Part shown: piece after piece, positions 3,867 through 33,127 of the stretch
How positions within the stretch are numbered: position 1 is the first letter of the stretch
How the letters are laid out: every line of letters starts with the position of its first letter
Virus record (IMG/VR): IMGVR_UViG_3300022934_000003
Reading direction: 5' to 3' (one strand)
DNA length: 64,000 nt
Origin: a virus
Notes under the pieces: model-generated
Told to the model about the DNA's origin: nothing
Databases searched by the model: none
Seen by the model: the letters and a program-made list of their open reading frames with translations, nothing else
Translations under genes and position numbers: made by a program

Positions 3867-4742
3867 TTAAGGGAGTTTAATTTCTAAATTGTATTGATCT
3901 AAACACATGTCTTCTAGTGTTTTTGTGAGAGTAACTAAATTACTTAGATCATCTACTACACTTGCTGTAGCATCACCTTCTCTACGAGGTGCAATTTCTT
4001 TTTCGATTTTAATACCTGTAACTTTTTCCATGCAATCAAGTACTTCTAATACACTATATCCTTCATTACTTCCAAGGCATTCATATGGTGTATTTGCAGG
4101 ACCTGTTTCTACTGCATTTACAATTGCATTAGTGAGATCCAAAATATGAATATAATCACGTATGCAAGTACCATCGCGAGTAGGATAGTCATTACCGTAT
4201 ATAGAGATTTTAGGAAGTTTGTTCGCAGCAACCATAGCAGCAACACGAATAAGATGGGTAGGAGCACCGAGCTGTCTGTTAACGCCATCAGTACCAGAAA
4301 CATTAAAAAAACGGAAGATAGTATACCCATTTGCTTTCTCCTTAATAATATCTTCTGCTGCTACTTTACTTTTAGCATAAGGAGAAGCCATTTCCCAAGC
4401 ACTACTTGTACTTGCAAAAATAAAATGGTCAGTACTTACGTTATCTAACATATTTGCAGTTCCCATAGCATTTACTCTATAGTATTCAGTTGGTTCTGAC
4501 ATACTTTGAGGAACAACACTACGTCCTGCTAAATGTACTACAGCATCAAATTTACCACCAATCTGAGGATCGGTAATATCTATATTATACCAGTCTGGAC
4601 AATAATCTGAAATATCATTATATTCACCATGAATATTAGTATCCCATCCTGTAACATGATGACCATGTTCTTTTAACATTTTACATACATGACTACCGAT
4701 ATAACCAGTTGCACCTGTCACTAAAACATTTTTTACTTCCAT
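3867..4742 (-). CDS. galE: UDP-glucose 4-epimerase (compact GalE)
   Basis: TGATGYIGSH Rossmann motif, YAKSK (YxxxK), FRFFN, GNDYPTRDGTCIRDYIH. Confidence 0.9.
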   Translation of the reverse strand: MEVKNVLVTGATGYIGSHVCKMLKEHGHHVTGWDTNIHGEYNDISDYCPDWYNIDITDPQIGGKFDAVVHLAGRSVVPQSMSEPTEYYRVNAMGTANMLDNVSTDHFIFASTSSAWEMASPYAKSKVAAEDIIKEKANGYTIFRFFNVSGTDGVNRQLGAPTHLIRVAAMVAANKLPKISIYGNDYPTRDGTCIRDYIHILDLTNAIVNAVETGPANTPYECLGSNEGYSVLEVLDCMEKVTGIKIEKEIAPRREGDATASVVDDLSNLVTLTKTLEDMCLDQYNLEIKLP

Positions 4743-15929: not shown

Positions 15930-18509
15930 ATGCCTGATTTTTACACCAACGTAGATCGAATTGGTAACTTTATTCTATGGCGAGGATATCAAGCCGGACG
16001 AAAGTTCGAACGTAAAATTAAATACGAACCTACTATCTTTGTAGGTACTAATAATAAAGAATCGATGTGGAAATCTCTTATTGATGATAGTCCACTTCAG
16101 GCTACTAAAAAAGGTACGATGAAAGATACTCGTATCTATATCGAAGATCATAAAGATGTTCATGGATTTAAAATTGCTGGTAATAGTAATTATGTTGCGC
16201 AATTTATTCAAGAGCATTATCCTGATAATATTGAATTTGATCCATCATTAATTAATATCGTTTCGTTTGATATAGAGGTTGATATATCTGATGGTTATGC
16301 TAATATTAACCAAGCAGATAAAGAAATTACATCTATTGCTTACAAGTCGACTAAACACCTAAGGTATCATTTGCTTGGTCGTAAAGACTATGATAAGACT
16401 CAAACTATTACTGATATTAATCCAGATAATATCGAATTTAAAAAGTTTGATACTGAACATCAATTACTTCAAGAGTTTAAACGTATTTGGATGGAAGACT
16501 ATCCTGATATTGTAACTGGTTGGAACGTTGAATATTTTGATATTCAATATATTATAACTCGTATGATTCGTTTATTTGGCGAAGACTGGGTTAAAGATCT
16601 ATCTCCTTGGCGTAATATTCGTCAGCAATCTCGTGAAGTATTTGGTAAAAAACAATCAACTTGGTCTATATCTGGTATATCGATTATTGATTATATGGAT
16701 GCTTTTAAGAAGTTTGGTTACAAATATGGTCCACAAGAATCTTATAAACTAGATCATATTGCTTACGTCGTGCTTGGTGAAAAGAAATTAGATTACTCTG
16801 AATATGGTTCTTTGACTGCTTTGTACGAACAAAATCCACAACTTTATTTGGATTATAACCTTAAAGATACATGGCTTGTTGAAAAGCTTGAAGAGGAATC
16901 AGGTCTACTATCTCTTGTAATGACTGTTGCTTATGGTGGAGGTGTAAACTATTCTGATGCATTTGGTACCGTGAGTATTTGGGAAACAACTCTTTATCGT
17001 CGACTGATGAAAAAAGGTATTGTGCCTCCATTAAAAGGTGGTCCTGGTGAACGCGTTGCTGAACTCGTTGGTGGTTATGTTAAAGATCCAAAGGTTGGAA
17101 TGCATCCTTGGGTTGTCTCATTCGATCTAAATTCTCTATATCCACACCTGATGTTACAATATAACTTGTCACCAGAAACATATGTAGACAACGCACGAGA
17201 ATATATTAACCAAGATATGGTGCTCAATGGACAAGAAGTTGCAGATCCTAATAATCCTGGTAGTACAATGCGTGTACCATATCAAAACAGATCTAGGTAT
17301 GCAACATGTGCTAATGGTGCATGCTTTAGAAAAGATAAACTTGGTATCATTCCTGAAATCATTGATGAATATTATGCTACTCGATCTGGAATTAAAAAGC
17401 GTATGTTACAAGTTGAACAAGAACTTGAAACTGCGAAGGGTACTGATAAATTAGCTCTTAAACGAGAAGCTAACCAATTACATAATCAGCAAATGGCGAT
17501 TAAGATTGCTATGAACTCTTTGTATGGCGCAACAGCAAATATTTACTTCCTATATTATATTAACGATATGGCTGAAGCAATTACAACATCTGGCCAATTG
17601 TCAATTCGTTACGCTCAAAAATCTGTAAACGAATATCTAAATAAGTTATTGAAAACAGATAGTGTTGATTATATTATCTACATCGATACAGATTCTATCT
17701 ATGTTAATATGGGACCTGTTATTCAAGCTTCGTTTGGTACAATGGATATCGATCGTGCTAAAGGTGAAGAGTTCCTTGATAAAATTTGTGAAATGAAAAT
17801 TGAACCTATTATTGATGCTGGTTATAAAGAACTTGCTGAAAAGATGGGAGCATATCGACAAGCAATGAGTATGAAGCGAGAAAAGATTACTGATAAAGCA
17901 GTATTCATTGCAAAGAAACGTTATATTTTAAATGCACTTAACTCAGAAGGTGTACATTATGAACAACCTAAGATTTCTGTTACAGGTTTGGAATCAGTAC
18001 GATCTTCTACTCCGGAAGTTTGTCGTGATAAACTGAAAGCAGCATTTAAAGTAATTATGAATGAAGGTGAAGAAGCAATGCAAGAATTTATTGCTAATTT
18101 TAAAGATGAGTTCTTTAAACTACCACCTGAAGCTATTGGCCGTAACTCCGGTACAGATAATATAGATAAGTATAGGAATAGAGAAACATTGTACAAAAAA
18201 GGTTGTCCAATGCACGTAAGAGGTTGTATTCTTTATAATTATCATTTGAAAGAAAAGCAGTTAGATAAAAAATTCGAATCTGTTATTTCAGGTGATAAAG
18301 TAAAGTTTGTTTATCTTAAAACACCTAATCCTATTCGTGAAAATATTATATCGTTTCCCGGAGTACTTCCTAAAGAACTTGGATTGCATGACTATATAGA
18401 TTATGAAAAGCAATTCGAAAAGGTTTTTCTAAGTCCTCTTGAATCTATCCTCGAAGCGATCGGTTGGTCTGCAGAGAAGGTAAATACTCTTGAAGACTTT
18501 TTTGTTTAA
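15930..18509 (+). CDS. gp43: family B DNA polymerase
   Basis: FDIE exonuclease motif, [25 protein letters not shown]-terminal LEDFF clamp-binding peptide. Confidence 0.97.
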
Positions 18510-18704: not shown

Positions 18705-19220
18705 ATGAGTAAAGATTGGGCCCAAGATATTCATGAAATGCAAAACAAGTTCCAACTACCTAATTGGGTAAAGGATAATCCAGATAAACTTAAAGAGTTT
18801 TTAGAGTTTAGGATTCGTTTTGTTCGTGAAGAATTGGAAGAAACAGAAAAAGCGTTTGCAAATAAAATTGACGCAGAAGAAATTGTAGATGGTTTAATTG
18901 ATATATGTGTAGTTGCTATCGGCACACTTGATGCATTTAAAGTAAATTCTCATCAGGCATGGGATCAAGTTATGGAAGCTAATATGTCAAAAGAAGTTGG
19001 TGTAAAACCAGAAAGACCAAATCCACTTGGTTTACCAGATTTAATGAAACCAGAAGGTTGGCAAGCTCCATCTCATGCTGGTAATCACGGTTTATTAGCA
19101 AATCTATATCGTCTTGATAAGATTGGACAAGGACTAAAACAGCAAGTAGAATCAGGAACTTTGTCTGCAGATGATCTAGATTATATTGAAAAAATTGCAA
19201 AAAGTTTGAAAAAAGGCTAA
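18705..19220 (+). CDS. all-alpha NTP pyrophosphohydrolase (MazG/PRA-PH-like)
   Basis: EELEE...EEIVDGLIDI, ANMSK, KPEGWQAP. Confidence 0.8.
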   Translation: MSKDWAQDIHEMQNKFQLPNWVKDNPDKLKEFLEFRIRFVREELEETEKAFANKIDAEEIVDGLIDICVVAIGTLDAFKVNSHQAWDQVMEANMSKEVGVKPERPNPLGLPDLMKPEGWQAPSHAGNHGLLANLYRLDKIGQGLKQQVESGTLSADDLDYIEKIAKSLKKG

Positions 19221-22249: not shown

Positions 22250-22639
22250 ATGAAACAAAAAGTAACAAAAACTCCCGAAGCTTCAGTAAAGTATTCTAAA
22301 AATACTCCTGAGGCTGTAAAAGTACTTCAAGAGTGTATTGATTTACAACTTAAAAAATCTAGAGATTATCAAAATCCAAACTCACCAATCAAACAAGCAG
22401 ATTATTATCCAAGTGGTGTACAAACAATTTATGAAGTTATGTGGGCTAAAATGCTTCGTATGAAATCTGTTATGGAAGCAATGAAAGCTTCTGATGGATA
22501 TGATCCTAATTTTGAAAGCCTAGAAGACAGCGCTAAAGATCTTGCTAACTATGCAAGCTTCTTTGTTTCTTATTGTCGTGGAGGTATTGGAGGACAAACT
22601 GAAGGTAAAGATATTTTCAATAAACCAATAAAGAAATAA
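22250..22639 (+). CDS. nucleotide modification-associated domain protein (Nmad1/DUF1599-like)
   Basis: LQ.KKSRDY...K.LR...ESLEDS..DL.NYA pattern. Confidence 0.7.
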   Translation: MKQKVTKTPEASVKYSKNTPEAVKVLQECIDLQLKKSRDYQNPNSPIKQADYYPSGVQTIYEVMWAKMLRMKSVMEAMKASDGYDPNFESLEDSAKDLANYASFFVSYCRGGIGGQTEGKDIFNKPIKK

Positions 22640-22651
22640 AGAGGTAATATT

Positions 22652-23347
22652 ATGATGAACGTTGCTGATATTAAAAATTACTTTGTTGGTGAACTTGAAG
22701 CTCAACGCTTTACCGTAGATAAAACTGGTGCAAAAACTATTGAGATGCTTGGTGCATCTTTTAAAGCAGATAAACCAGCCATTTTTGGAGTACCTTCTGA
22801 TGAGTATATACAAAAAGAAATCGCGTGGTATGAAAAGCAATCAACCAACATTAATGACATCTATGGTGAAGAACGTGATGCTCCTGCTGCTTGGAAATAT
22901 GCTGCTGATGCTTATGGGAATATTAATAGTAATTATGGAAAAATAGTTTTTTCTGATCAATACTATAATCAATTTGAAAATGCATTAAATGAACTGAGAA
23001 ACAATCCAGACTCTCGTAGAGCTGAAATGGTTTATAACCGTCCAAGTATTTGGAAAGAGTTTGATGAGAATGGTAAATCAGATTTTATTTGTACTAATGC
23101 ACAAACATTCTATATTCGTGATGGTAAACTTCATTTGGTTTCTCAAATGAGATCTAATGATGTTGTATTTGGTTATAAAAATGATTATGCTTGGGCTCAA
23201 TATCTAATGGATAAAATGGTTACTGCATATAATGATACTATAGATCTAGATAGTGATTACATTACTAAAGGCGATCTTATTTGGCAAGTACAAAACTTAC
23301 ACGTTTACGAAAGACATTTTGAATTAGTTGAAGCGTATGGGATGTAA
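22652..23347 (+). CDS. gp42: dCMP hydroxymethylase (thymidylate-synthase fold)
   Basis: INSNYG, DSRRA, DFICT catalytic Cys, MRSNDVVFGYKNDYAW with the cytosine-specifying Asp, LHVYERHF; all match T4 gp42 as recalled. Confidence 0.88.
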   Translation: MMNVADIKNYFVGELEAQRFTVDKTGAKTIEMLGASFKADKPAIFGVPSDEYIQKEIAWYEKQSTNINDIYGEERDAPAAWKYAADAYGNINSNYGKIVFSDQYYNQFENALNELRNNPDSRRAEMVYNRPSIWKEFDENGKSDFICTNAQTFYIRDGKLHLVSQMRSNDVVFGYKNDYAWAQYLMDKMVTAYNDTIDLDSDYITKGDLIWQVQNLHVYERHFELVEAYGM

Positions 23348-23349
23348 TT

Positions 23350-23523
23350 ATGGCTAAATATAATATACAAATAACAAAAGACGGAAAATTTTCAGCGAAT
23401 GCATGTATGGTAATTAATGAAGATCATAATACATACGTGCATGAATGTCCATTGTTTGATACTATTGATGAAGTACAAACATGGATTATTGAAAACGCTA
23501 AATATATAACAGAATGTAAATAA
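23350..23523 (+). CDS. hypothetical protein (57 aa, not in the track)
   Basis: MAKYNIQ...ECK fills the gap between gp42 and the next gene, with stop/start overlap. Confidence 0.5.
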   Translation: MAKYNIQITKDGKFSANACMVINEDHNTYVHECPLFDTIDEVQTWIIENAKYITECK

Positions 23524-23810
23524 TGAAAAAATCACCTATTAATAATATGCAGCAATTGTTAGCAATTACTGCTGAGGAATGTGGAGAATTAACTCAAGCT
23601 TGCATGAAAATAATGAGAATGAATAATACCAAACAAGGAATGTTTGATAATAACGAGTATTATAATTCTTTATTAGATGAAGTTGGAGATGTTGCTTGTA
23701 TGATTGGGTTACTTATAGAGCACGGATTTGTAGATGAAGATGTTATAACAAACCGTGCAATAGCTAAAAGAGAAAAGTTAAGACAATGGAGTACATTAAT
23801 TAATGACTGA
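23523..23810 (+). CDS. MazG-like nucleotide pyrophosphatase
   Basis: AEECGEL...LLDEVGDV. Confidence 0.75.
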   Translation: MKKSPINNMQQLLAITAEECGELTQACMKIMRMNNTKQGMFDNNEYYNSLLDEVGDVACMIGLLIEHGFVDEDVITNRAIAKREKLRQWSTLIND

Positions 23811-24252
23811 TAAGTGGGATAAGCGATTTATGAATGTCGCAAGAGAAATCTCTACGTGGAGTAAAGATCCAAGTACTAAAATTGGTGCTATCATTGTTAA
23901 TGATGAAAGACGTATTCTTGCAACTGGTTATAATGGTTTTCCAAAAGGTATTGAAGATACTGATGAAAGACTATATAATAAAGAACAAAAATATACTCGC
24001 GTAATTCATGCAGAAATGAATGCTCTTATGAATGCATTATATAATGGAGTATCAGTTAAAGATTCTACTTTATACGTATGGGGTTTACCAGTTTGTTCTG
24101 AATGTGCAAAGAATGTTATCCAAGCTGGTATTAAAAGAGTTGTAATTCCCGATTATGAAGTTATAGATTTAAGATGGGAAAAAGTTTGGTTAACTAAATC
24201 TCAGCCAATGTTTGAAGAAGCGGGTTTACAAATCTCGTATTTGGAGTTATAA
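23803..24252 (+). CDS. cd: dCMP deaminase
   Basis: [30 protein letters not shown]. Confidence 0.92.
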
Positions 24253-24259
24253 TAGTATT

Positions 24260-24592
24260 ATGAGTTATTTAGTTATAGATAATTGTGTTAAATGTAAGCA
24301 CACTGATTGTGTTGAGGTTTGTCCTGTAGACTGCTTTTATGAAGGACCTGATATGTTAGTAATCAATCCAAGCGAATGTATTGATTGTGGTGTATGTGAA
24401 CCTGAATGTCCTGTTGATGCAATTGTGTTAGAAACAGATTTAAAAGAAGATGAACGTAAGTTATGGACAGAAAGAAATGAAAAGTATTCTGAAATCTGGC
24501 CTAATATTGTAGATAAAAAAGATCCTCCATTTGATTTTGATGAGTGGGAGGGTGTACCTAATAAGTTTGAAAAATTTGTGGAGCCAAAATGA
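24260..24592 (+). CDS. fdxA: 7Fe ferredoxin (FdxA type)
   Basis: [17 protein letters not shown] and [12 protein letters not shown]; start MSYLV at 24260. Confidence 0.92.
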
Positions 24593-25686
24593 AAAAAGTT
24601 TTAATTACTGGAATGAATAAATTACAATGTACAAAAGATTTCTTTTTGCAACAACAATTGCAAGTTGTACCTTCTCACTATTCTGTTATTCGTTCTCTTG
24701 AAGATATGGGTTATCAAGTAGAACAAAGACCTGTAGCACTTGGTGAAGATCTATCTGGTTATGATGAGGTTATTGTTTATATTCATAGTATTCAATCGTT
24801 TTGTCAATTCATTTGGTCTGGTTTATATGCAGTACATGCCCGCCCTAATTGTATTATTGCCTTTGATGATTGGCAATTTAATCAAATCTATGGAGCCATT
24901 CAAACATATAAAGAGAACCTCGAGAATGACGATCCAGGTGTTTTTAGACAATACCTATTTGATCTATGGCAGGGTAAAGAAGATAAAGAAACAGTGATGA
25001 AATATAAAGACGCATATATTGATGGCTGTAATATTATTACAAGTAAACAAAATAGATTATTAGTAAGTGCATTCGCTGGTGGTGATTTATCAACACTAGA
25101 ATTAGGATGGAGTCCAGAAAATACATACACATTTAATCCAAATCCATATCATCTTAATCGTCGTGCAGACAATGGATATGGAACTGGAACAGTGGGATTA
25201 GATAATTTCTTTGGTGATACACCAGAAAAAGAAATGAAATGGAACTTCGCTTCTCTAGTGCAAGAGAAAACGAGGAAATGGTTAAAGGCACAGCAACCTG
25301 ACGATTGGAAGTGGGAAATTGTTTATTATGGCGCTAAGCGCGGAAAATACAAGTCAGAGCGTAAAACTGAGCCCGAGATGGTGAAGGTATTCGAACAACA
25401 GTGGGGTTGTTTAATGCCAGGATACTTTCACGCAGGATCCGGGTGGTGGCGAGCACGCCCGCTTCAGGTTGCCGATGCCGGTTCTATTATCATTGGTGAT
25501 AAACCAGAAATGATGGTATATTATCAAGATGATTATTTAGCGGGACTAAAAGTTTCAGATGTAGAAGCAATGGATCTTACACAACTTAAACAAACTGCTC
25601 AAGCACAAAGAGATGCATTATATGATAATCATCCTCTAGATAAAAAAGTACAACAAGAAGAAATGAAGAATATTTTAGAAGCATGA
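24589..25686 (+). CDS. GT-B glycosyltransferase, T4 beta-glucosyltransferase-like (putative DNA glycosyltransferase)
   Basis: Colinear by-eye similarity to T4 BGT as recalled: VPS..EDMG.QV, YDEVIVY, AFDDW (cf. LFTDI, D100), IVYYG..R, RARPLQ (cf. TLRVWE), similar length. Confidence 0.6.
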
Positions 25687-26702
25687 ATATATTAGTAGTA
25701 GGCGCAGGATTATCAGGAGTAACAATTGCACGTGAGATGGCTGAAGCCGGACATATTGTAGATGTAATTGATAAACGCGATCATATTGCTGGTAATGCTT
25801 ATGATTATATTAATGAATATGGTATTCGTGTACATCAATATGGACCCCATTTATTTCATACAAATAATAAAGAAGTGTTTTCTTATCTTTCTAAATTTAC
25901 CGAATGGGTTCCATATAAGCATAAAGTGAAAGCATTATTAGAAGATGGTCGTTATGCAACTCTACCAGTAAATAAAGAAACAAAAGAAATGGTTGGTGAA
26001 TCAAATGTACTTGATATTTTCTTTAGACCATATACAAAGAAAATGTGGGGAGTTGAGCTTGATGAATTAAATCCTGATATTGTAAATCGTGTTCCAATTC
26101 GTGATGATGATAACGAATATTATTTTCCAAACGATGCATATCAGTTTATGCCAAAAGACGGTTATACTAAAATGGTGGAAAATATTTTATCTCATATAAA
26201 CATTACGGTAAAATTGAAAACAGAATACGATAAAGAAATGAATAGTCATTATGATCATGTATTTAATTCAATGCCAATTGATCAGTATTTTGATTTTAAA
26301 CATGGAGACTTACCATATCGATCTATTAAATTTGAAACTATAACAGTACCATTACCTATAGCATTACCAACTGCTACAGTTAATTTTACTCATGATGGTC
26401 CACAAACTAGAGTAACAGAATGGAAGCGCATCCCGTTTCATGGTATAAATAAATATCATACAACATTAACTTTTGAAACTCCGTGTGATTATAAAGATAA
26501 TAATATGGAGCGTTACTATCCTATTAAAGATAAAGATGGTACAAATAGAAAGTTATATGAACAGTATAAAAGTGAGCAACCGGATAATATGACTTTTATC
26601 GGTAGATGTGGATTATATGCGTATTTAGATATGCATCAAGCTGTAAATTCTGCATTAGCTACCGCAAAAAGATTTTTAGAGAATGAAACACGAAACCAGT
26701 GA
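25683..26702 (+). CDS. glf: UDP-galactopyranose mutase
   Basis: VGAGLSG FAD motif, HIAGNAYD, HQYGPHLFHT, YTKKMWG, LPYRS, RYYP, GRCGLYAYLDM. Confidence 0.93.
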   Translation: MNILVVGAGLSGVTIAREMAEAGHIVDVIDKRDHIAGNAYDYINEYGIRVHQYGPHLFHTNNKEVFSYLSKFTEWVPYKHKVKALLEDGRYATLPVNKETKEMVGESNVLDIFFRPYTKKMWGVELDELNPDIVNRVPIRDDDNEYYFPNDAYQFMPKDGYTKMVENILSHINITVKLKTEYDKEMNSHYDHVFNSMPIDQYFDFKHGDLPYRSIKFETITVPLPIALPTATVNFTHDGPQTRVTEWKRIPFHGINKYHTTLTFETPCDYKDNNMERYYPIKDKDGTNRKLYEQYKSEQPDNMTFIGRCGLYAYLDMHQAVNSALATAKRFLENETRNQ

Positions 26703-26815: not shown

Positions 26816-28015
26816 ATGAGTGAGTTTACACATGCAAGTATAGTACCTTTAATTGGTGGTGAAACAATAGGATCTGCAAATGCTTTTGGATCTCCTCCAT
26901 TACATTTTATGTCATATGAAGCGTTTGCTAATAACGATCAGCATATTAGAAATTATTATAAAGATACGCCATATTACGTTTTAGATAAAGGTGATAAAAT
27001 ACCAGAGCAAAGAGCTGATGTAGTTTCATCGGTATGTCCTTGTGCTGGTTTATCAATGATGTCTCACGGTTATGGCGATGATAATCAAAATAATAAATGG
27101 ATGGTAGAAACAGCAACTACTATTCTTGGTGATTATAGACCAAAAGTATTCTGGGGAGAAAATGCTCCAGGATTTGCTGGTAAGATTGGAAAAAATATTC
27201 GTGAACAATTAAGAGGTATTGGTAAAGAGAATGGATACACAATGAGTGTATATCGTACTCGTTCTTTATTGCATGGTGTACCTCAGGTAAGAGAACGTTC
27301 TTTTTATTTCTTTTGGCAAGGTAATCAAGTTCCTATTTTTGATTATTATAAAAGAGATTATACACCAATTGAAACGCTTATTCGTAATGCAAAAGGTACT
27401 CAAAATAATCCTATTAATAAAAACACACCATCTGAAAATCCATATTACAAATATATTCTTGAAGAGATTGAAGGTGGTAAAACACATGCTCAACATTCCA
27501 ATTCAGTTCCTCCAACATCAGCAAGAGGTGTAGATGCTTTTTCTTATATTGAAAGAGCAGGTAAAGATTATAGCCAAGTTGGTAAATGGATGGGTGAAAA
27601 TGGATTTGAAAAAGAAGTAGAAAAATGTGAATACAAATATGATAAACTAAAAGCCGGTAAAAGTATTATGAGACGTGGAGTAATTATTCCTAAAGATCGT
27701 ATTGGTGCTTTTGTTGGTCATTATCCTACAATGCTTACACATCCAGATGAGGATAGATTTATTACATATCGAGAAGCTATGTCTATTATGGGATTGCCAG
27801 AAGATTTTGAATTAGTAGATGCTAGTAAAAAGAATGCTAATCATATTTGTCAAAACGTTCCTGTAAAAACTGCTCAAGATATGGCGCATGAAGTATTACA
27901 AACTTTAAAAGGTAAAAGAAAAATGGTTGACACGGAGTACGTTTTGCAGTATAATACTACTAATAAGCTTGAATTTGATGAGAGCTTAAGTACCCTAGAG
28001 GATTTTTTAGTATGA
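26816..28015 (+). CDS. DNA cytosine-5 methyltransferase-like protein with an atypical motif I
   Basis: CPCAG (motif IV), ENAPG (VI), VPQVRER (VIII), RFITYREA..MGLP.DF (IX), QNVP (X). Confidence 0.8.
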   Translation: MSEFTHASIVPLIGGETIGSANAFGSPPLHFMSYEAFANNDQHIRNYYKDTPYYVLDKGDKIPEQRADVVSSVCPCAGLSMMSHGYGDDNQNNKWMVETATTILGDYRPKVFWGENAPGFAGKIGKNIREQLRGIGKENGYTMSVYRTRSLLHGVPQVRERSFYFFWQGNQVPIFDYYKRDYTPIETLIRNAKGTQNNPINKNTPSENPYYKYILEEIEGGKTHAQHSNSVPPTSARGVDAFSYIERAGKDYSQVGKWMGENGFEKEVEKCEYKYDKLKAGKSIMRRGVIIPKDRIGAFVGHYPTMLTHPDEDRFITYREAMSIMGLPEDFELVDASKKNANHICQNVPVKTAQDMAHEVLQTLKGKRKMVDTEYVLQYNTTNKLEFDESLSTLEDFLV

Positions 28016-28641
28016 GAACAGACTTTATTTTAGACTTTGAAACTATTGGACAAGTTGCATCGGAGGTTCCAGCAATTGAATGTTCATATACAACATTTGT
28101 ATGGGATCGTTTTTTAGAAGATCCATATACATTTGAAGAGCTTGTTTCAAAAATAAAAAAAGATAAACTTTCTATTTCGGATCAAATGAAAAATTATGAT
28201 TTTAAATATAAAGAGGATGATCTTAAATGGTGGATGAATCAATCACCTGAAGTAAGAAAGTTGCTTAAACCAAAAGATAGTGATCTTACAGTACCTCAAT
28301 TTATTGAACGTATGATAGAATATTTGAGAACATCTGATAAGATTGAATATTGGTGGGCTAGAGCAAATGGTTTTGATCCAGTTATATTAGATCATTTGTC
28401 TCGTTCTGCTAATAAAGATTTATTACTCAATGAGTATATTCCTTATTGGAGAGTAAGAGACACTCGCACATTTATTGATGCGAAGTTTAATTTTACAACA
28501 AGAAACGGTTTTGTACCAATTGCAGATGAAGAGCATTGGAATAAAATTTTTAATGCACATGATAGTACTCATGATGTGGCGGCTGATGTTCTACGATTAC
28601 AAGCTATTCATAGAGCAGAAAATGATTTAGAACAAGTATAA
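28012..28641 (+). CDS. dexA: exonuclease A (DexA-like DEDDh 3'-5' exonuclease)
   Basis: LDFET, WARANGFD, RDTRT, HDSTHDVAAD. Confidence 0.8.
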   Translation: MRTDFILDFETIGQVASEVPAIECSYTTFVWDRFLEDPYTFEELVSKIKKDKLSISDQMKNYDFKYKEDDLKWWMNQSPEVRKLLKPKDSDLTVPQFIERMIEYLRTSDKIEYWWARANGFDPVILDHLSRSANKDLLLNEYIPYWRVRDTRTFIDAKFNFTTRNGFVPIADEEHWNKIFNAHDSTHDVAADVLRLQAIHRAENDLEQV

Positions 28642-28653
28642 GGTAGCGTAAAT

Positions 28654-29532
28654 ATGGAAATAAAAGTAACAATCGAAGAACTTAGAAAGCATAAAGTATT
28701 TGTGGGAACACCAATGTATGGTGCTCAATGCGCTGGTACTTATACTAAATCAAGTACTGACTTAGCAATGATAGCAGCTGCAAATGGTTTAAATTTCAGA
28801 TTCTATTATCTATTTAATGAGAGTTTAATTCAAAGAGCTCGTAATTATATTGTAGATGAGTTTATGAGATCTGATTGTACTCATTTATTGTTCATTGATT
28901 CTGATATTGGTTTTAATGCAAGAGATGTTTTATCTTTATTGGCTGTTCAAACATCAGATCCAGAAAAATATAATATTGTTACTGGACCATATCCAAAGAA
29001 AACTATTGCATGGGAAAAGGTATACAAAGCAGCACAAGCAGGTAGAGCAGATGAAAATCCATTTGAATTAGAAAACTACGCTGCTGATTTTGTATTTAAT
29101 CCAGTAAAGAAAGTTAATCAGTTTAATTTATCTGAACCAATTGAAATTGGTGAAGGTGGTACAGGATTTATGTTAATTCCTCGTGAAACTTTTGAAAAGT
29201 TTGGTAAGGCATATCCTGAATTACAATATAAACCAGATCATGTTAGAACACAACAGTTTGATGGTTCTCATGATATTATGGCTTATTTCGATTGTATAAT
29301 CGATCCAGTGTCTAAGCGCTATTTGTCTGAAGATTATTTCTTCTGTCATAAAGCACGTGAAGCTGGAATGCATGTTTATATGTGTCCTTGGATGCAATTA
29401 CAACATATAGGATCTTATATTTTCAAAGGAAATATGGCTGCTATTGGAAGTCTTGGTGTTTCTGCAACAGCAGATTCTTCTGGTAGTCGTAAAACTTATG
29501 AAAAGAAAAAGAAAAAGAAACGTAAAAAATAG
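28654..29532 (+). CDS. GT-A fold glycosyltransferase-like protein
   Basis: GTPMYG, ESLIQRARN, LFIDSDI (DxD), TGFMLI.R, SEDYFFC. Confidence 0.7.
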   Translation: MEIKVTIEELRKHKVFVGTPMYGAQCAGTYTKSSTDLAMIAAANGLNFRFYYLFNESLIQRARNYIVDEFMRSDCTHLLFIDSDIGFNARDVLSLLAVQTSDPEKYNIVTGPYPKKTIAWEKVYKAAQAGRADENPFELENYAADFVFNPVKKVNQFNLSEPIEIGEGGTGFMLIPRETFEKFGKAYPELQYKPDHVRTQQFDGSHDIMAYFDCIIDPVSKRYLSEDYFFCHKAREAGMHVYMCPWMQLQHIGSYIFKGNMAAIGSLGVSATADSSGSRKTYEKKKKKKRKK

Positions 29533-32614: not shown

Positions 32615-33127
32615 ATGAAAATTTATAAAGTGAATAAGGAAGCAACTCTTCCTGAATACGCAACCGACGGTTCCGCGTGTTTCGATGTTAAAGCATGTGT
32701 CAAAAAAGGTCAAAGACTTAAATCATATAATAACTGGAATAAAGAGATGGCGATTGTTGTCAAAGGTGTTGGCAATTCTCAAGATGCATTTCAACTTCCA
32801 CCAGATTGTAGATGTTTAATCCCAACAGGTTTAATTTTTGATATTCCAAAAGGCCACGTAATGAAAATGTATATTCGTTCTGGTACTGCTCTAAAGAAAG
32901 GATTACAACTATCAAATGGTACTGGTATTATTGATTCTGATTATGTAGAAGAAACATACATTATGGTTACTAATGTAACTGATTCTTTAGTTACTATTGA
33001 AAATGGTGAAAGACTTGCACAATGTTTAATAGAAAAAACGTTACAAGAAGAAATTAAAGAAACTAAAACAGCTCCAAAACAAAAGACTAATAGAGATGGT
33101 GGTTTTGGAAGTACTGGAAAAAAATAG
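32615..33127 (+). CDS. dut: dUTPase (trimeric)
   Basis: SACFD, RSG, GIIDSDY, ERLAQ, RDGGFGSTG. Confidence 0.95.
   Translation: MKIYKVNKEATLPEYATDGSACFDVKACVKKGQRLKSYNNWNKEMAIVVKGVGNSQDAFQLPPDCRCLIPTGLIFDIPKGHVMKMYIRSGTALKKGLQLSNGTGIIDSDYVEETYIMVTNVTDSLVTIENGERLAQCLIEKTLQEEIKETKTAPKQKTNRDGGFGSTGKK

Follow-up and report, generated by a model that had tools for sequence, protein, structure and literature searches.

The viral DNA stretch IMGVR_UViG_3300022934_000003 (64 kb, ~32% G+C; "the window" hereafter means this whole stretch) encodes a gene cluster that we read, with moderate confidence, as a pre- plus post-replicative cytosine hypermodification module making galactofuranosyl-5-hydroxymethylcytosine (Galf-hmC). 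Its core comprises a gp42-type deoxycytidine monophosphate (dCMP) hydroxymethylase, a glycosyltransferase of predicted GT-B fold and a UDP-galactopyranose mutase (UGM; the gene product Glf), while a GalE-like epimerase is encoded elsewhere in the window. That the module is a DNA cytosine-glycosylation system is highly probable. As for its product, Galf-hmC is the best-supported reading that we infer, and we hold it to be reasonably probable. The base had been proposed in an earlier note made from the letters of the window, and every computational test suggested there came out in favour of it.

In the proposed pathway, the gp42 homologue would convert dCMP to 5-hydroxymethyl-dCMP, as its close homology and diagnostic residues suggest, and this nucleotide would be phosphorylated and incorporated in place of deoxycytidine. 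Three MazG-like pyrophosphatases encoded in the window are candidate dCTPases, and no deoxynucleoside monophosphate kinase was identified in a scan that covered part of the open reading frames (ORFs). Judging by family assignment, the GalE-like enzyme and Glf would convert UDP-glucose to UDP-galactopyranose (UDP-Galp) and further to UDP-galactofuranose (UDP-Galf). The GT-B enzyme would then transfer galactofuranose to the hydroxymethyl group of 5-hydroxymethylcytosine (hmC) in duplex DNA, a step suggested by the conserved pairing of transferase and Glf, and the resulting Galf-hmC would protect the phage DNA against restriction and CRISPR nucleases.

Linkage of the transferase and the mutase across phages

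The cultured set was obtained by tblastn against 50,697 phage records, with the transferase matched in 36 records and Glf in 90. Of the transferase-bearing records, 23 belong to Straboviridae or Kyanoviridae, and in all 23 Glf adjoins the transferase (19 of Aeromonas phages, two of Stenotrophomonas phage IME13, Erwinia phage FBB1 and phage C48C1). Adjacency was read off the gene coordinates for each record that both searches listed, and the annotation tables confirm it for Aeromonas phage 25, FBB1 and C48C1. Compared directly, the Glf proteins of these three phages are 42–58% identical to that of the window. Glf precedes the transferase in the Straboviridae and follows it in the window and in C48C1, and the transferases are 27–33% identical, so that the adjacency has outlasted both rearrangement and divergence.

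The IMG/VR set consists of 80 loci recovered with the family profile, and all counts out of 80 given below refer to it. Here, the transferase is accompanied by gp42 in 72/80 loci and followed by Glf in 48/80, while a C5-methyltransferase-like gene stands after the transferase or Glf in 75/80 and is the transferase's most faithful companion. The co-occurrence of glf, transferase and gp42, which had been named as a check on the proposal, is thus borne out for Glf in both sets and for gp42 in IMG/VR. A maximum-likelihood tree from a quick search gathers all Glf-less transferases in one clade with a Shimodaira–Hasegawa-like approximate likelihood ratio test (SH-aLRT) support of 99, nested among Glf-linked ones, and the transferases of cultured phages, all of them Glf-linked, lie outside that nesting. 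An ancestral pairing of transferase and Glf with one later loss is the simplest reading of this tree. No Glf was found anywhere in two large Glf-less contigs, which are 74% and 61% complete.

Phage C48C1 (locus L001, OQ984149, 6580–10027) carries a Tet_JBP dioxygenase, the transferase and Glf in one string, and neither a gp42 nor a C5-methyltransferase homologue was found in its genome. TET/JBP dioxygenases are the other known route to 5-hydroxymethylpyrimidines in DNA. The acceptor in C48C1 could also be 5-hydroxymethyluracil, and the product would then be a galactofuranosyl analogue of base J.

The transferase and a second glycosyltransferase

The transferase belongs to a family currently annotated only as 'hypothetical', which comprises 593 clusters at 50% identity, found with a profile among 1.8 billion representative proteins, and 262 stretches in IMG/VR. 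It has no Pfam or NCBIfam match, and its only PHROG match is phrog_14998 ('unknown function'). Searched against the PDB, neither the single sequence (phmmer) nor a 33-sequence profile found a glycosyltransferase, the sole match of the latter being spurious (E 0.05). The AlphaFold model built from the 33-sequence alignment, with a predicted local distance difference test (pLDDT) score of 87.6 and a predicted template modelling score (pTM) of 0.85, has the two Rossmann domains of a GT-B fold. In a Foldseek search of the PDB, the five best matches were all T4 beta-glucosyltransferase (BGT; top match 1qkj, E 2.5e-7, template modelling (TM) scores 0.56–0.58), followed by SenB, T4 alpha-glucosyltransferase (AGT) and the glycosyltransferase of phage HY126. 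An all-against-all comparison with VIA-align placed T4 BGT (1c3j) in a tied first position (Z 15.9, 291 residues aligned), and the leading matches in both searches were GT-B enzymes throughout. In a viral structure library, the first match outside the transferase's own family was a 351-residue entry. The earlier note had aligned the protein with T4 BGT by eye as colinear. No sequence method supports this alignment (hhalign gave a non-significant probability of 4.5% over 61 N-terminal columns), but structure prediction, proposed there as a check, returned a GT-B fold with T4 BGT as the best Foldseek match among solved structures. On its predicted model, the transferase is BGT-like in fold and stands outside the BGT sequence family.

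The residues invariant throughout the family, distant members included, are R47, E53, R85, D94, W95, Y187, E261, W286, R288, R290, Q293, D296 and E307. By analogy with other GT-B enzymes, Asp94, just after strand beta-4, is likely the general base, and the W286-x-R288-x-R290-x-x-Q293 loop together with E307 is likely the UDP-binding site. The Glf-less clade (loci L043–L081) shows fixed changes from A to S, P to V and L to Q at positions 289, 291 and 292, which interleave with the invariant W286, R288, R290 and Q293 of this presumed donor-binding loop and are consistent with a donor switch. An internal GLDNFFG was considered as a clamp-binding motif and rejected, since only 38 of the 61 family members have it and all three distant members from cultured phages (C48C1, Aeromonas phage 25, Erwinia FBB1) lack it.

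A second glycosyltransferase, missed in the earlier note, is encoded further downstream in the same gene string. The protein has no Pfam match, and its predicted model (pLDDT 85.8) has a GT-A fold. The sequence shows DxD (D82-S-D84) and ED (E226-D227, within EDY) motifs and ends in a poly-Lys tail. Its top Foldseek matches include STIV A197 (2e-8), the collagen galactosyltransferase COLGALT1 and the galactofuranosyltransferase GlfT2 (4fiy, 1.5e-6). The same ORF was also compared with the UDG-containing linker of the methyltransferase–transferase fusions described below; there was no correspondence, and the protein is a GT-A glycosyltransferase instead. It may be a second DNA glycosyltransferase that adds a second sugar.

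This would allow a two-step glycan, in which the GT-B enzyme adds a pyranose hexose (glucose or galactose) as T4 BGT does and the GT-A enzyme adds galactofuranose, or the reverse order, so that the product is a disaccharide with galactofuranose not base-proximal. The DxD and ED motifs, the basic tail, the place in the gene string and the match to GlfT2 are in keeping with such a route, and the successive action of two DNA glycosyltransferases has precedents among phages (bioRxiv 10.1101/2023.12.21.572611; PMC13326640). However, the GT-A gene is found in 64/80 loci, equally in those with and without Glf, and it also precedes gp45 in phages without the GT-B enzyme (Stenotrophomonas DLP_6, Sinorhizobium phiM7/M19/N3). 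It occurs in Pelagibacter phage HTVC023P as well. Moreover, no Aeromonas or Erwinia phage is named among the GT-A matches, though these phages keep Glf and the GT-B enzyme, and GlfT2 is one of many GT-A matches near E 1e-6. We therefore regard the two-step glycan as unlikely, and since the GT-A gene is present with and without Glf and in GT-B-less phages, the enzyme was kept as a rival or an extension outside the core.

Mutase, epimerase and the identity of the predicted furanose

A UDP-galactopyranose mutase overlapping the transferase by ATGA had been claimed for the window; the overlap was read directly, and the protein matches PF03275 (3e-53) over profile positions 2–203 of 203 as well as PF13450 (8e-17), with an N-terminal GxGxxG for binding of flavin adenine dinucleotide. 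Against solved UGM structures, it reached E 3e-73 (D. radiodurans) and E 3e-68 (K. pneumoniae). The motifs YT..WG, R.P.R...YF, TR.TE.K, YYP and GR...Y.Y.D match in both of these enzymes, and we take them to hold the substrate-contacting Arg, Tyr and Trp residues of bacterial UGMs. Approximately 35 residues of the helical domain (domain 2), equivalent to K. pneumoniae UGM 104–137, are missing, and consequently the protein falls just under the NCBIfam equivalog threshold (TIGR00031, 284.2 bits vs a cut-off of 303.75). The Glf of C48C1 (336 aa) aligns with that of the window with 2 gapped positions and is thus equally short, and the copies in Aeromonas and Erwinia phages are not shortened.

UGMs are active only with reduced flavin. 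The gene upstream of the transferase, whose stop overlaps the transferase start by ATGA, encodes a proteobacterial-type FdxA ferredoxin, and it is a speculative thought that this ferredoxin keeps the flavin of Glf reduced. It is present in only 4/80 relatives. Its family match (NF045490) covers residues 17–121 of the TTG-initiated ORF, and the true start therefore probably lies downstream of the TTG.

A galE had been placed at 3867–4742, and a homologue is indeed encoded there, on the minus strand. Its 30 best PDB matches are all UDP-glucose or UDP-galactose 4-epimerases (E 2e-39), and it is closest to the UDP-glucose 4-epimerases. Against TIGR01179, it scores below the equivalog cut-off (E 1e-61, 208 bits vs 262), and it is ~45 residues shorter than E. 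coli GalE. In 17 IMG/VR loci, all of them Glf-bearing, the dCMP deaminase and transferase genes immediately flank a galE homologue, so that the string reads galE, transferase, Glf. UDP-Galp would probably come from the GalE-like epimerase. The Aeromonas and Erwinia phages were found to lack galE and presumably use UDP-galactose of the host.

The same architecture could deliver another furanose, if Glf and the GalE-like enzyme acted on UDP-L-arabinose or UDP-N-acetylgalactosamine (UDP-GalNAc) to give arabinofuranosyl- or GalNAc-furanosyl-hmC. Room for this is left by the helical-domain deletion and the sub-threshold score of Glf as well as by the short epimerase (291 aa) below the GalE cut-off. 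Bacterial UGMs have a side activity on UDP-L-arabinose, and activity on UDP-GalNAc comes into view with 4mo2, one of the structure matches of Glf, which we take to be the C. jejuni homologue that handles this nucleotide sugar. In addition, arabinofuranose is already known on phage cytosines (PMC13326640). Nevertheless, apart from the deletion, the window Glf aligns over its full length with bacterial UGMs, matching in the substrate-contacting motifs, and the known phage arabinose pathway consists of an isomerase, a phosphatase and a kinase-uridylyltransferase, none of which was seen in the window. A furanose other than galactofuranose is accordingly quite improbable in our view.

DNA as the probable acceptor

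The transferase gene stands where b-gt is found in T4, shortly after gene 42 and within the block from 43 to 45. Among 19 long family members examined, ten contain a C5-cytosine DNA methylase domain, and three of these (P0192, P0234, P0239) also contain a UDG-superfamily domain; one further transferase protein is a fusion with dUTPase_2. The fusions with a C5 DNA methylase domain are metagenomic and 750–1400 aa in length, and the proteins concerned in these observations are P0176, P0179, P0183, P0186, P0189, P0192, P0234, P0239, P0252, P0267 and P0249, with locus L092. Inteins with LAGLIDADG endonucleases interrupt two fusions (P0186, P0192), and the ~350-aa linker of the UDG-less fusions has no recognised domain. 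The contig of one fusion protein also encodes a thymidylate-synthase homologue and a dCMP deaminase. No fusion or neighbourhood was found that points to surface-glycan synthesis.

Glf normally serves cell-surface glycans, and the transferase and Glf might likewise act off DNA, by remodelling host surface glycans or glycosylating virion proteins. Phages of Streptococcus suis and Lactobacillus have Glf homologues, and the Glf-carrying Streptococcus and Lactobacillus prophages probably act on such targets. Furthermore, most phage glycosyltransferase contigs are not beside a base-modification gene (bioRxiv 10.1101/2023.12.21.572611). In the present case, however, the b-gt position within a replication and nucleotide-metabolism block, the company of gp42 or, in C48C1, of a TET/JBP dioxygenase, the fusions to C5 DNA methylase, UDG and dUTPase domains, and the fold matches, led among solved structures by T4 BGT and then including T4 AGT and the HY126 enzyme, all argue for DNA, which leaves a role off DNA very improbable.

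The hydroxymethylase and the aglycone

The gp42-type enzyme with a cytosine-specifying Asp, which the earlier note had recognised from YKNDYAW, aligns over residues 2–228 with structures of T4 dCMP hydroxymethylase (1b49, E 4e-66) and is homologous along its entire length to the thymidylate synthase / dCMP hydroxymethylase fold (PF00303, 3e-18). Its motifs DFICTN, with the catalytic Cys, and YKNDYAW align with DFMCTN and FRNDYAW of T4, and it has Asp at the equivalents of E. coli ThyA positions 143, 169 and 177, as in T4 and unlike RB69 gp48. The window enzyme, T4 gp42, RB69 gp48, the homologues of Aeromonas phage 25 and Erwinia FBB1 and 72 metagenomic relatives were aligned. RB69 gp48 reads MRSQN and TLEYPC, whereas the window enzyme, T4 and all relatives read MRSND and DFxC; the ThyA-169 position is thereby Asp in the window enzyme and in 72/72 relatives and Asn in RB69 gp48.

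A 2026 study reported that many 'dCMP hydroxymethylase' homologues, including those of RB69 and other phages, make 5-hydroxy-dCMP, and proposed Asn at ThyA-169 as diagnostic of 5-hydroxycytosine (5hoC) synthases (PMC13326640). By this published criterion, the window enzyme is an hmC synthase with 5-hydroxymethyl-dCMP as the predicted product. An aglycone of 5hoC as in RB69, DLP3 and RL38J1, listed as an alternative in the earlier note and lent some weight by the finding that enzymes long called dCMP hydroxymethylases make 5hoC, is hardly credible here, because the diagnostic ThyA-D169N is absent from the window enzyme and the 72 relatives, the L143 position is Asp and not Glu, and the best match is T4 gp42 itself.

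The C5-methyltransferase-like companion

The C5-methyltransferase-like enzyme matches PF00145 with 75.4 bits against a cut-off of 22 (7e-21). No variation was seen among 55 relatives in its PC (PCAGLS), GEN and QxRxR motifs, and a conserved P-L-I-G-G stands in the place of the S-adenosylmethionine motif I, FxGxG. At its C-terminus, it carries the tail STLEDFLV, to be compared with NTLEDFFV (18486–18509) of the gp43 polymerase; the same tail was not found in other credible ORFs of the window, and most relatives keep [ST]LExF[FL]. The C-terminus of the T4 and RB69 polymerases binds the gp45 clamp, and with this precedent the polymerase-like tail suggests that the enzyme may ride the clamp as well. 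A predicted complex of the transferase with the C5-methyltransferase-like enzyme scored 0.01 against a mark of 0.32, which speaks neither for nor against binding.

An ordinary methylase would not be expected to act on cytosines that are already 5-substituted, and this enzyme, with its catalytic motifs intact, might then have another activity. The module could be a replisome-tethered modification machine that goes beyond a mere sugar transferase, with either covalent C6-attack chemistry on hmC or glycosyl-hmC, or base flipping, with presentation to the transferase, shortly behind the fork. We consider this idea tentative and rather doubtful. If true, either C6 attack or base presentation would be a new activity for the C5-methyltransferase fold.

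Weighing of the proposed galactofuranosyl-hmC assignment

Several observations weigh against Galf-hmC as the product. We infer the donor specificity of the transferase from gene linkage alone, and the distribution of the Glf-less state over transferase clades amounts to a single evolutionary event. Sequence similarity of the transferase to BGT is not significant, and by VIA-align BGT merely ties with other GT-B enzymes. Being shortened and below the cut-off, Glf could have a substrate that differs from UDP-Galp, and the GT-A enzyme in the same gene string, with GlfT2 among its top fold matches, could be the user of UDP-Galf. The conserved and apparently active C5-cytosine methyltransferase in the module is hard to reconcile with complete replacement of cytosine by hmC; replacement may be incomplete, or this enzyme may have another activity. 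Finally, galE lies 20 kb from the transferase in the window and on the other strand, and while three Glf-bearing contigs that are 73–79% complete have no galE, a homologue is present in one Glf-less contig, which rules out galE as an obligatory part of the module. The earlier claim that the sugar is supplied by galE is hence reasonable, but the epimerase is facultative and forms the weakest link in the chain.

The phage and the layout of the cluster

The window encodes a T4-type replication and morphogenesis set, with topoisomerase II subunits, a DNA helicase (phrog_16), UvsY, gp55, gp46/47, the gp43 polymerase, gp45, gp44/62, RegA, and baseplate and fibre proteins. A megablast search with the 4-kb cluster gave no match among the 50,697 phage records, and the DNA polymerase is at most ~44% identical to Kyanoviridae polymerases. 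With this gene set, no near relative and a polymerase of such divergence, the source is taken to be an uncultured aquatic T4-like myovirus.

All features of the module are summarized in Table 1. The positions given earlier for the four genes of the proposal were all correct. The description of gp42, transferase and Glf as a tightly coupled co-oriented cluster holds in so far as these genes are co-oriented and closely packed, but a 57-aa ORF, a MazG-like protein, the dCMP deaminase and the FdxA ferredoxin separate gp42 from the transferase. A counterpart of the 57-aa ORF was not found in related loci by tblastn.

Pyrophosphatase-type proteins are encoded at four places in the replication block (18705–19220, 22250–22639, 23523–23810 and 32615–33127), three of them MazG-like and one of the dUTPase family. 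T4 gp56 dCTPase was compared by BLASTP with the three MazG-like or dUTPase candidates and resembled none of them, and therefore no dCTPase can be assigned. The 129-aa MazG-like protein is found just upstream of gp42 in 57/80 related loci; it is the best dCTPase candidate and would act as a dCTP-depleting nucleotide pyrophosphatase.

Table 1. Features of the predicted hypermodification module and its surroundings, in window coordinates
Feature	Position	Strand	Evidence and remarks
MazG-like or hydrolase protein, 129 aa	22250..22639	+	phrog_18404 'hydrolase' 4e-11; directly upstream of gp42
gp42-type dCMP hydroxymethylase, 231 aa	22652..23347	+	1b49 match E 4e-66
57-aa ORF, no assigned role	23350..23523	+	no Pfam/PHROG match
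Small MazG-like NTP pyrophosphohydrolase, 95 aa	23523..23810	+	phrog_4856 1e-19; Pfam MazG 0.004, under cut-off
dCMP deaminase	23803..24252	+	PF00383 1e-22; phrog_174 2e-47; in 57/80 related loci
FdxA-type 7Fe ferredoxin	24212..24592	+	NF045490 150.7 bits, cut-off 135
GT-B fold glycosyltransferase, predicted DNA hmC galactofuranosyltransferase, 365 aa	24589..25686	+	AlphaFold model, Foldseek
UDP-galactopyranose mutase (Glf), 339 aa	25683..26702	+	PF03275 3e-53; UGM structures
C5-cytosine DNA methyltransferase-like enzyme	26816..28015	+	PF00145 7e-21
3'-5' exonuclease, Rv2179c-like fold	28012..28641	+	PF16473 2e-12; phrog_255 9e-27; 28/80 loci
GT-A fold glycosyltransferase	28654..29532	+	predicted model; only phrog_1574 match (PHROG of no known function)
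GalE-like UDP-hexose 4-epimerase, 291 aa	3867..4742	-	PDB matches, TIGR01179

Comparison with known systems

Glucosyl-hmC of the T-even phages is the textbook case of a sugar-modified phage cytosine. T4 has the same gp42-type dCMP hydroxymethylase with diagnostic residues identical to those of the window, and likewise a GT-B enzyme downstream of gene 42 in the 43-to-45 block, its BGT being the best Foldseek match of the window transferase. Both would share the logic of pre-replicative hmC followed by post-replicative glycosylation. In contrast to T4, the window transferase lacks significant sequence similarity to BGT and is translationally coupled to Glf, which T4 does not have, and the predicted sugar is galactofuranose instead of glucopyranose. 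Moreover, the window module adds the C5-methyltransferase-like enzyme, the ferredoxin and the GT-A enzyme.

Rhizobium phage RL38J1 also encodes Glf, which is 34% identical to that of the window and was proposed to supply UDP-Galf for glycosylation of DNA cytosines; the base-proximal sugar is galactose, and its furanose form is a proposal (PMC13326640). Unlike the window, which has Asp at ThyA-169, RL38J1 relies on a ThyA-D169N 5-hydroxycytosine synthase and an ether linkage, and there Glf and transferase are encoded apart (gp84 vs gp215). While the Glf search of the 50,697 records does match Rhizobium and Agrobacterium phages, the tblastn search with the window transferase matched none of them, and since RL38J1 is absent there, its glycosyltransferases belong to other families. 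The claim that the base is uncharacterised therefore needs a qualification: Galf-hmC was nowhere found described, but a phage Glf feeding DNA glycosylation had already been proposed for RL38J1 (PMC13326640). In the literature on galactofuranose with hydroxymethylcytosine or phage DNA hypermodification, this was the only relevant work, and nothing relevant was found on DNA glycosylation in Aeromonas phages.

The arabinofuranosyl chains on 5-hydroxycytosine of RB69 and DLP3 were solved in 2026 (PMC13326640). As in our proposal for the window, these T4-like phages place a furanose on a C5-oxygenated cytosine and have GT-B genes beside a thymidylate-synthase homologue; they differ in the 5hoC aglycone, in the use of D-arabinofuranose and in a pathway of isomerase, phosphatase and kinase-uridylyltransferase with no Glf. 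A further comparison is offered by clusters of a methyltransferase, a 5mYOX (TET) dioxygenase and a glycosyltransferase, where 5hmC in DNA is the substrate of T4-BGT-like GT-B enzymes, which frequently have a sugar epimerase as partner (PMC8256090; bioRxiv 10.1101/2023.12.21.572611). The sugars found on 5hmC are hexose, N-acetylhexosamine (HexNAc), heptose, 3-deoxy-D-manno-octulosonic acid (Kdo) and hexuronic acid (HexA) (bioRxiv 10.1101/2023.12.21.572611). The C48C1 relative, with Tet_JBP beside the transferase and Glf, and the C5-methyltransferase–transferase fusions in the family resemble these clusters, whereas hmC of the window would come from gp42 and not from methyltransferase plus TET, and the latter work mentions neither galactofuranose nor a mutase (bioRxiv 10.1101/2023.12.21.572611).

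Which of the restriction, type IV and CRISPR systems can cut a phage genome depends on its sugar-modified cytosines, and these also yield enzymes for epigenomic sequencing. To our knowledge, galactofuranose is absent from mammals. If true, Galf-hmC would bring a new furanose chemistry to a repertoire of known decorations that includes glucose, arabinose, heptose, Kdo and HexNAc. Since the pair of transferase and Glf is present in already isolated phages, among them Aeromonas phages 25, Aes508, Aes012, phiAS4 and AS-gz, Stenotrophomonas IME13 and Erwinia FBB1, the prediction is directly testable there. Set beside the systems compared here, the module is, in the best-supported reading, of a known kind and extends it by a sugar that is new and by an uncharacterised family of transferases.

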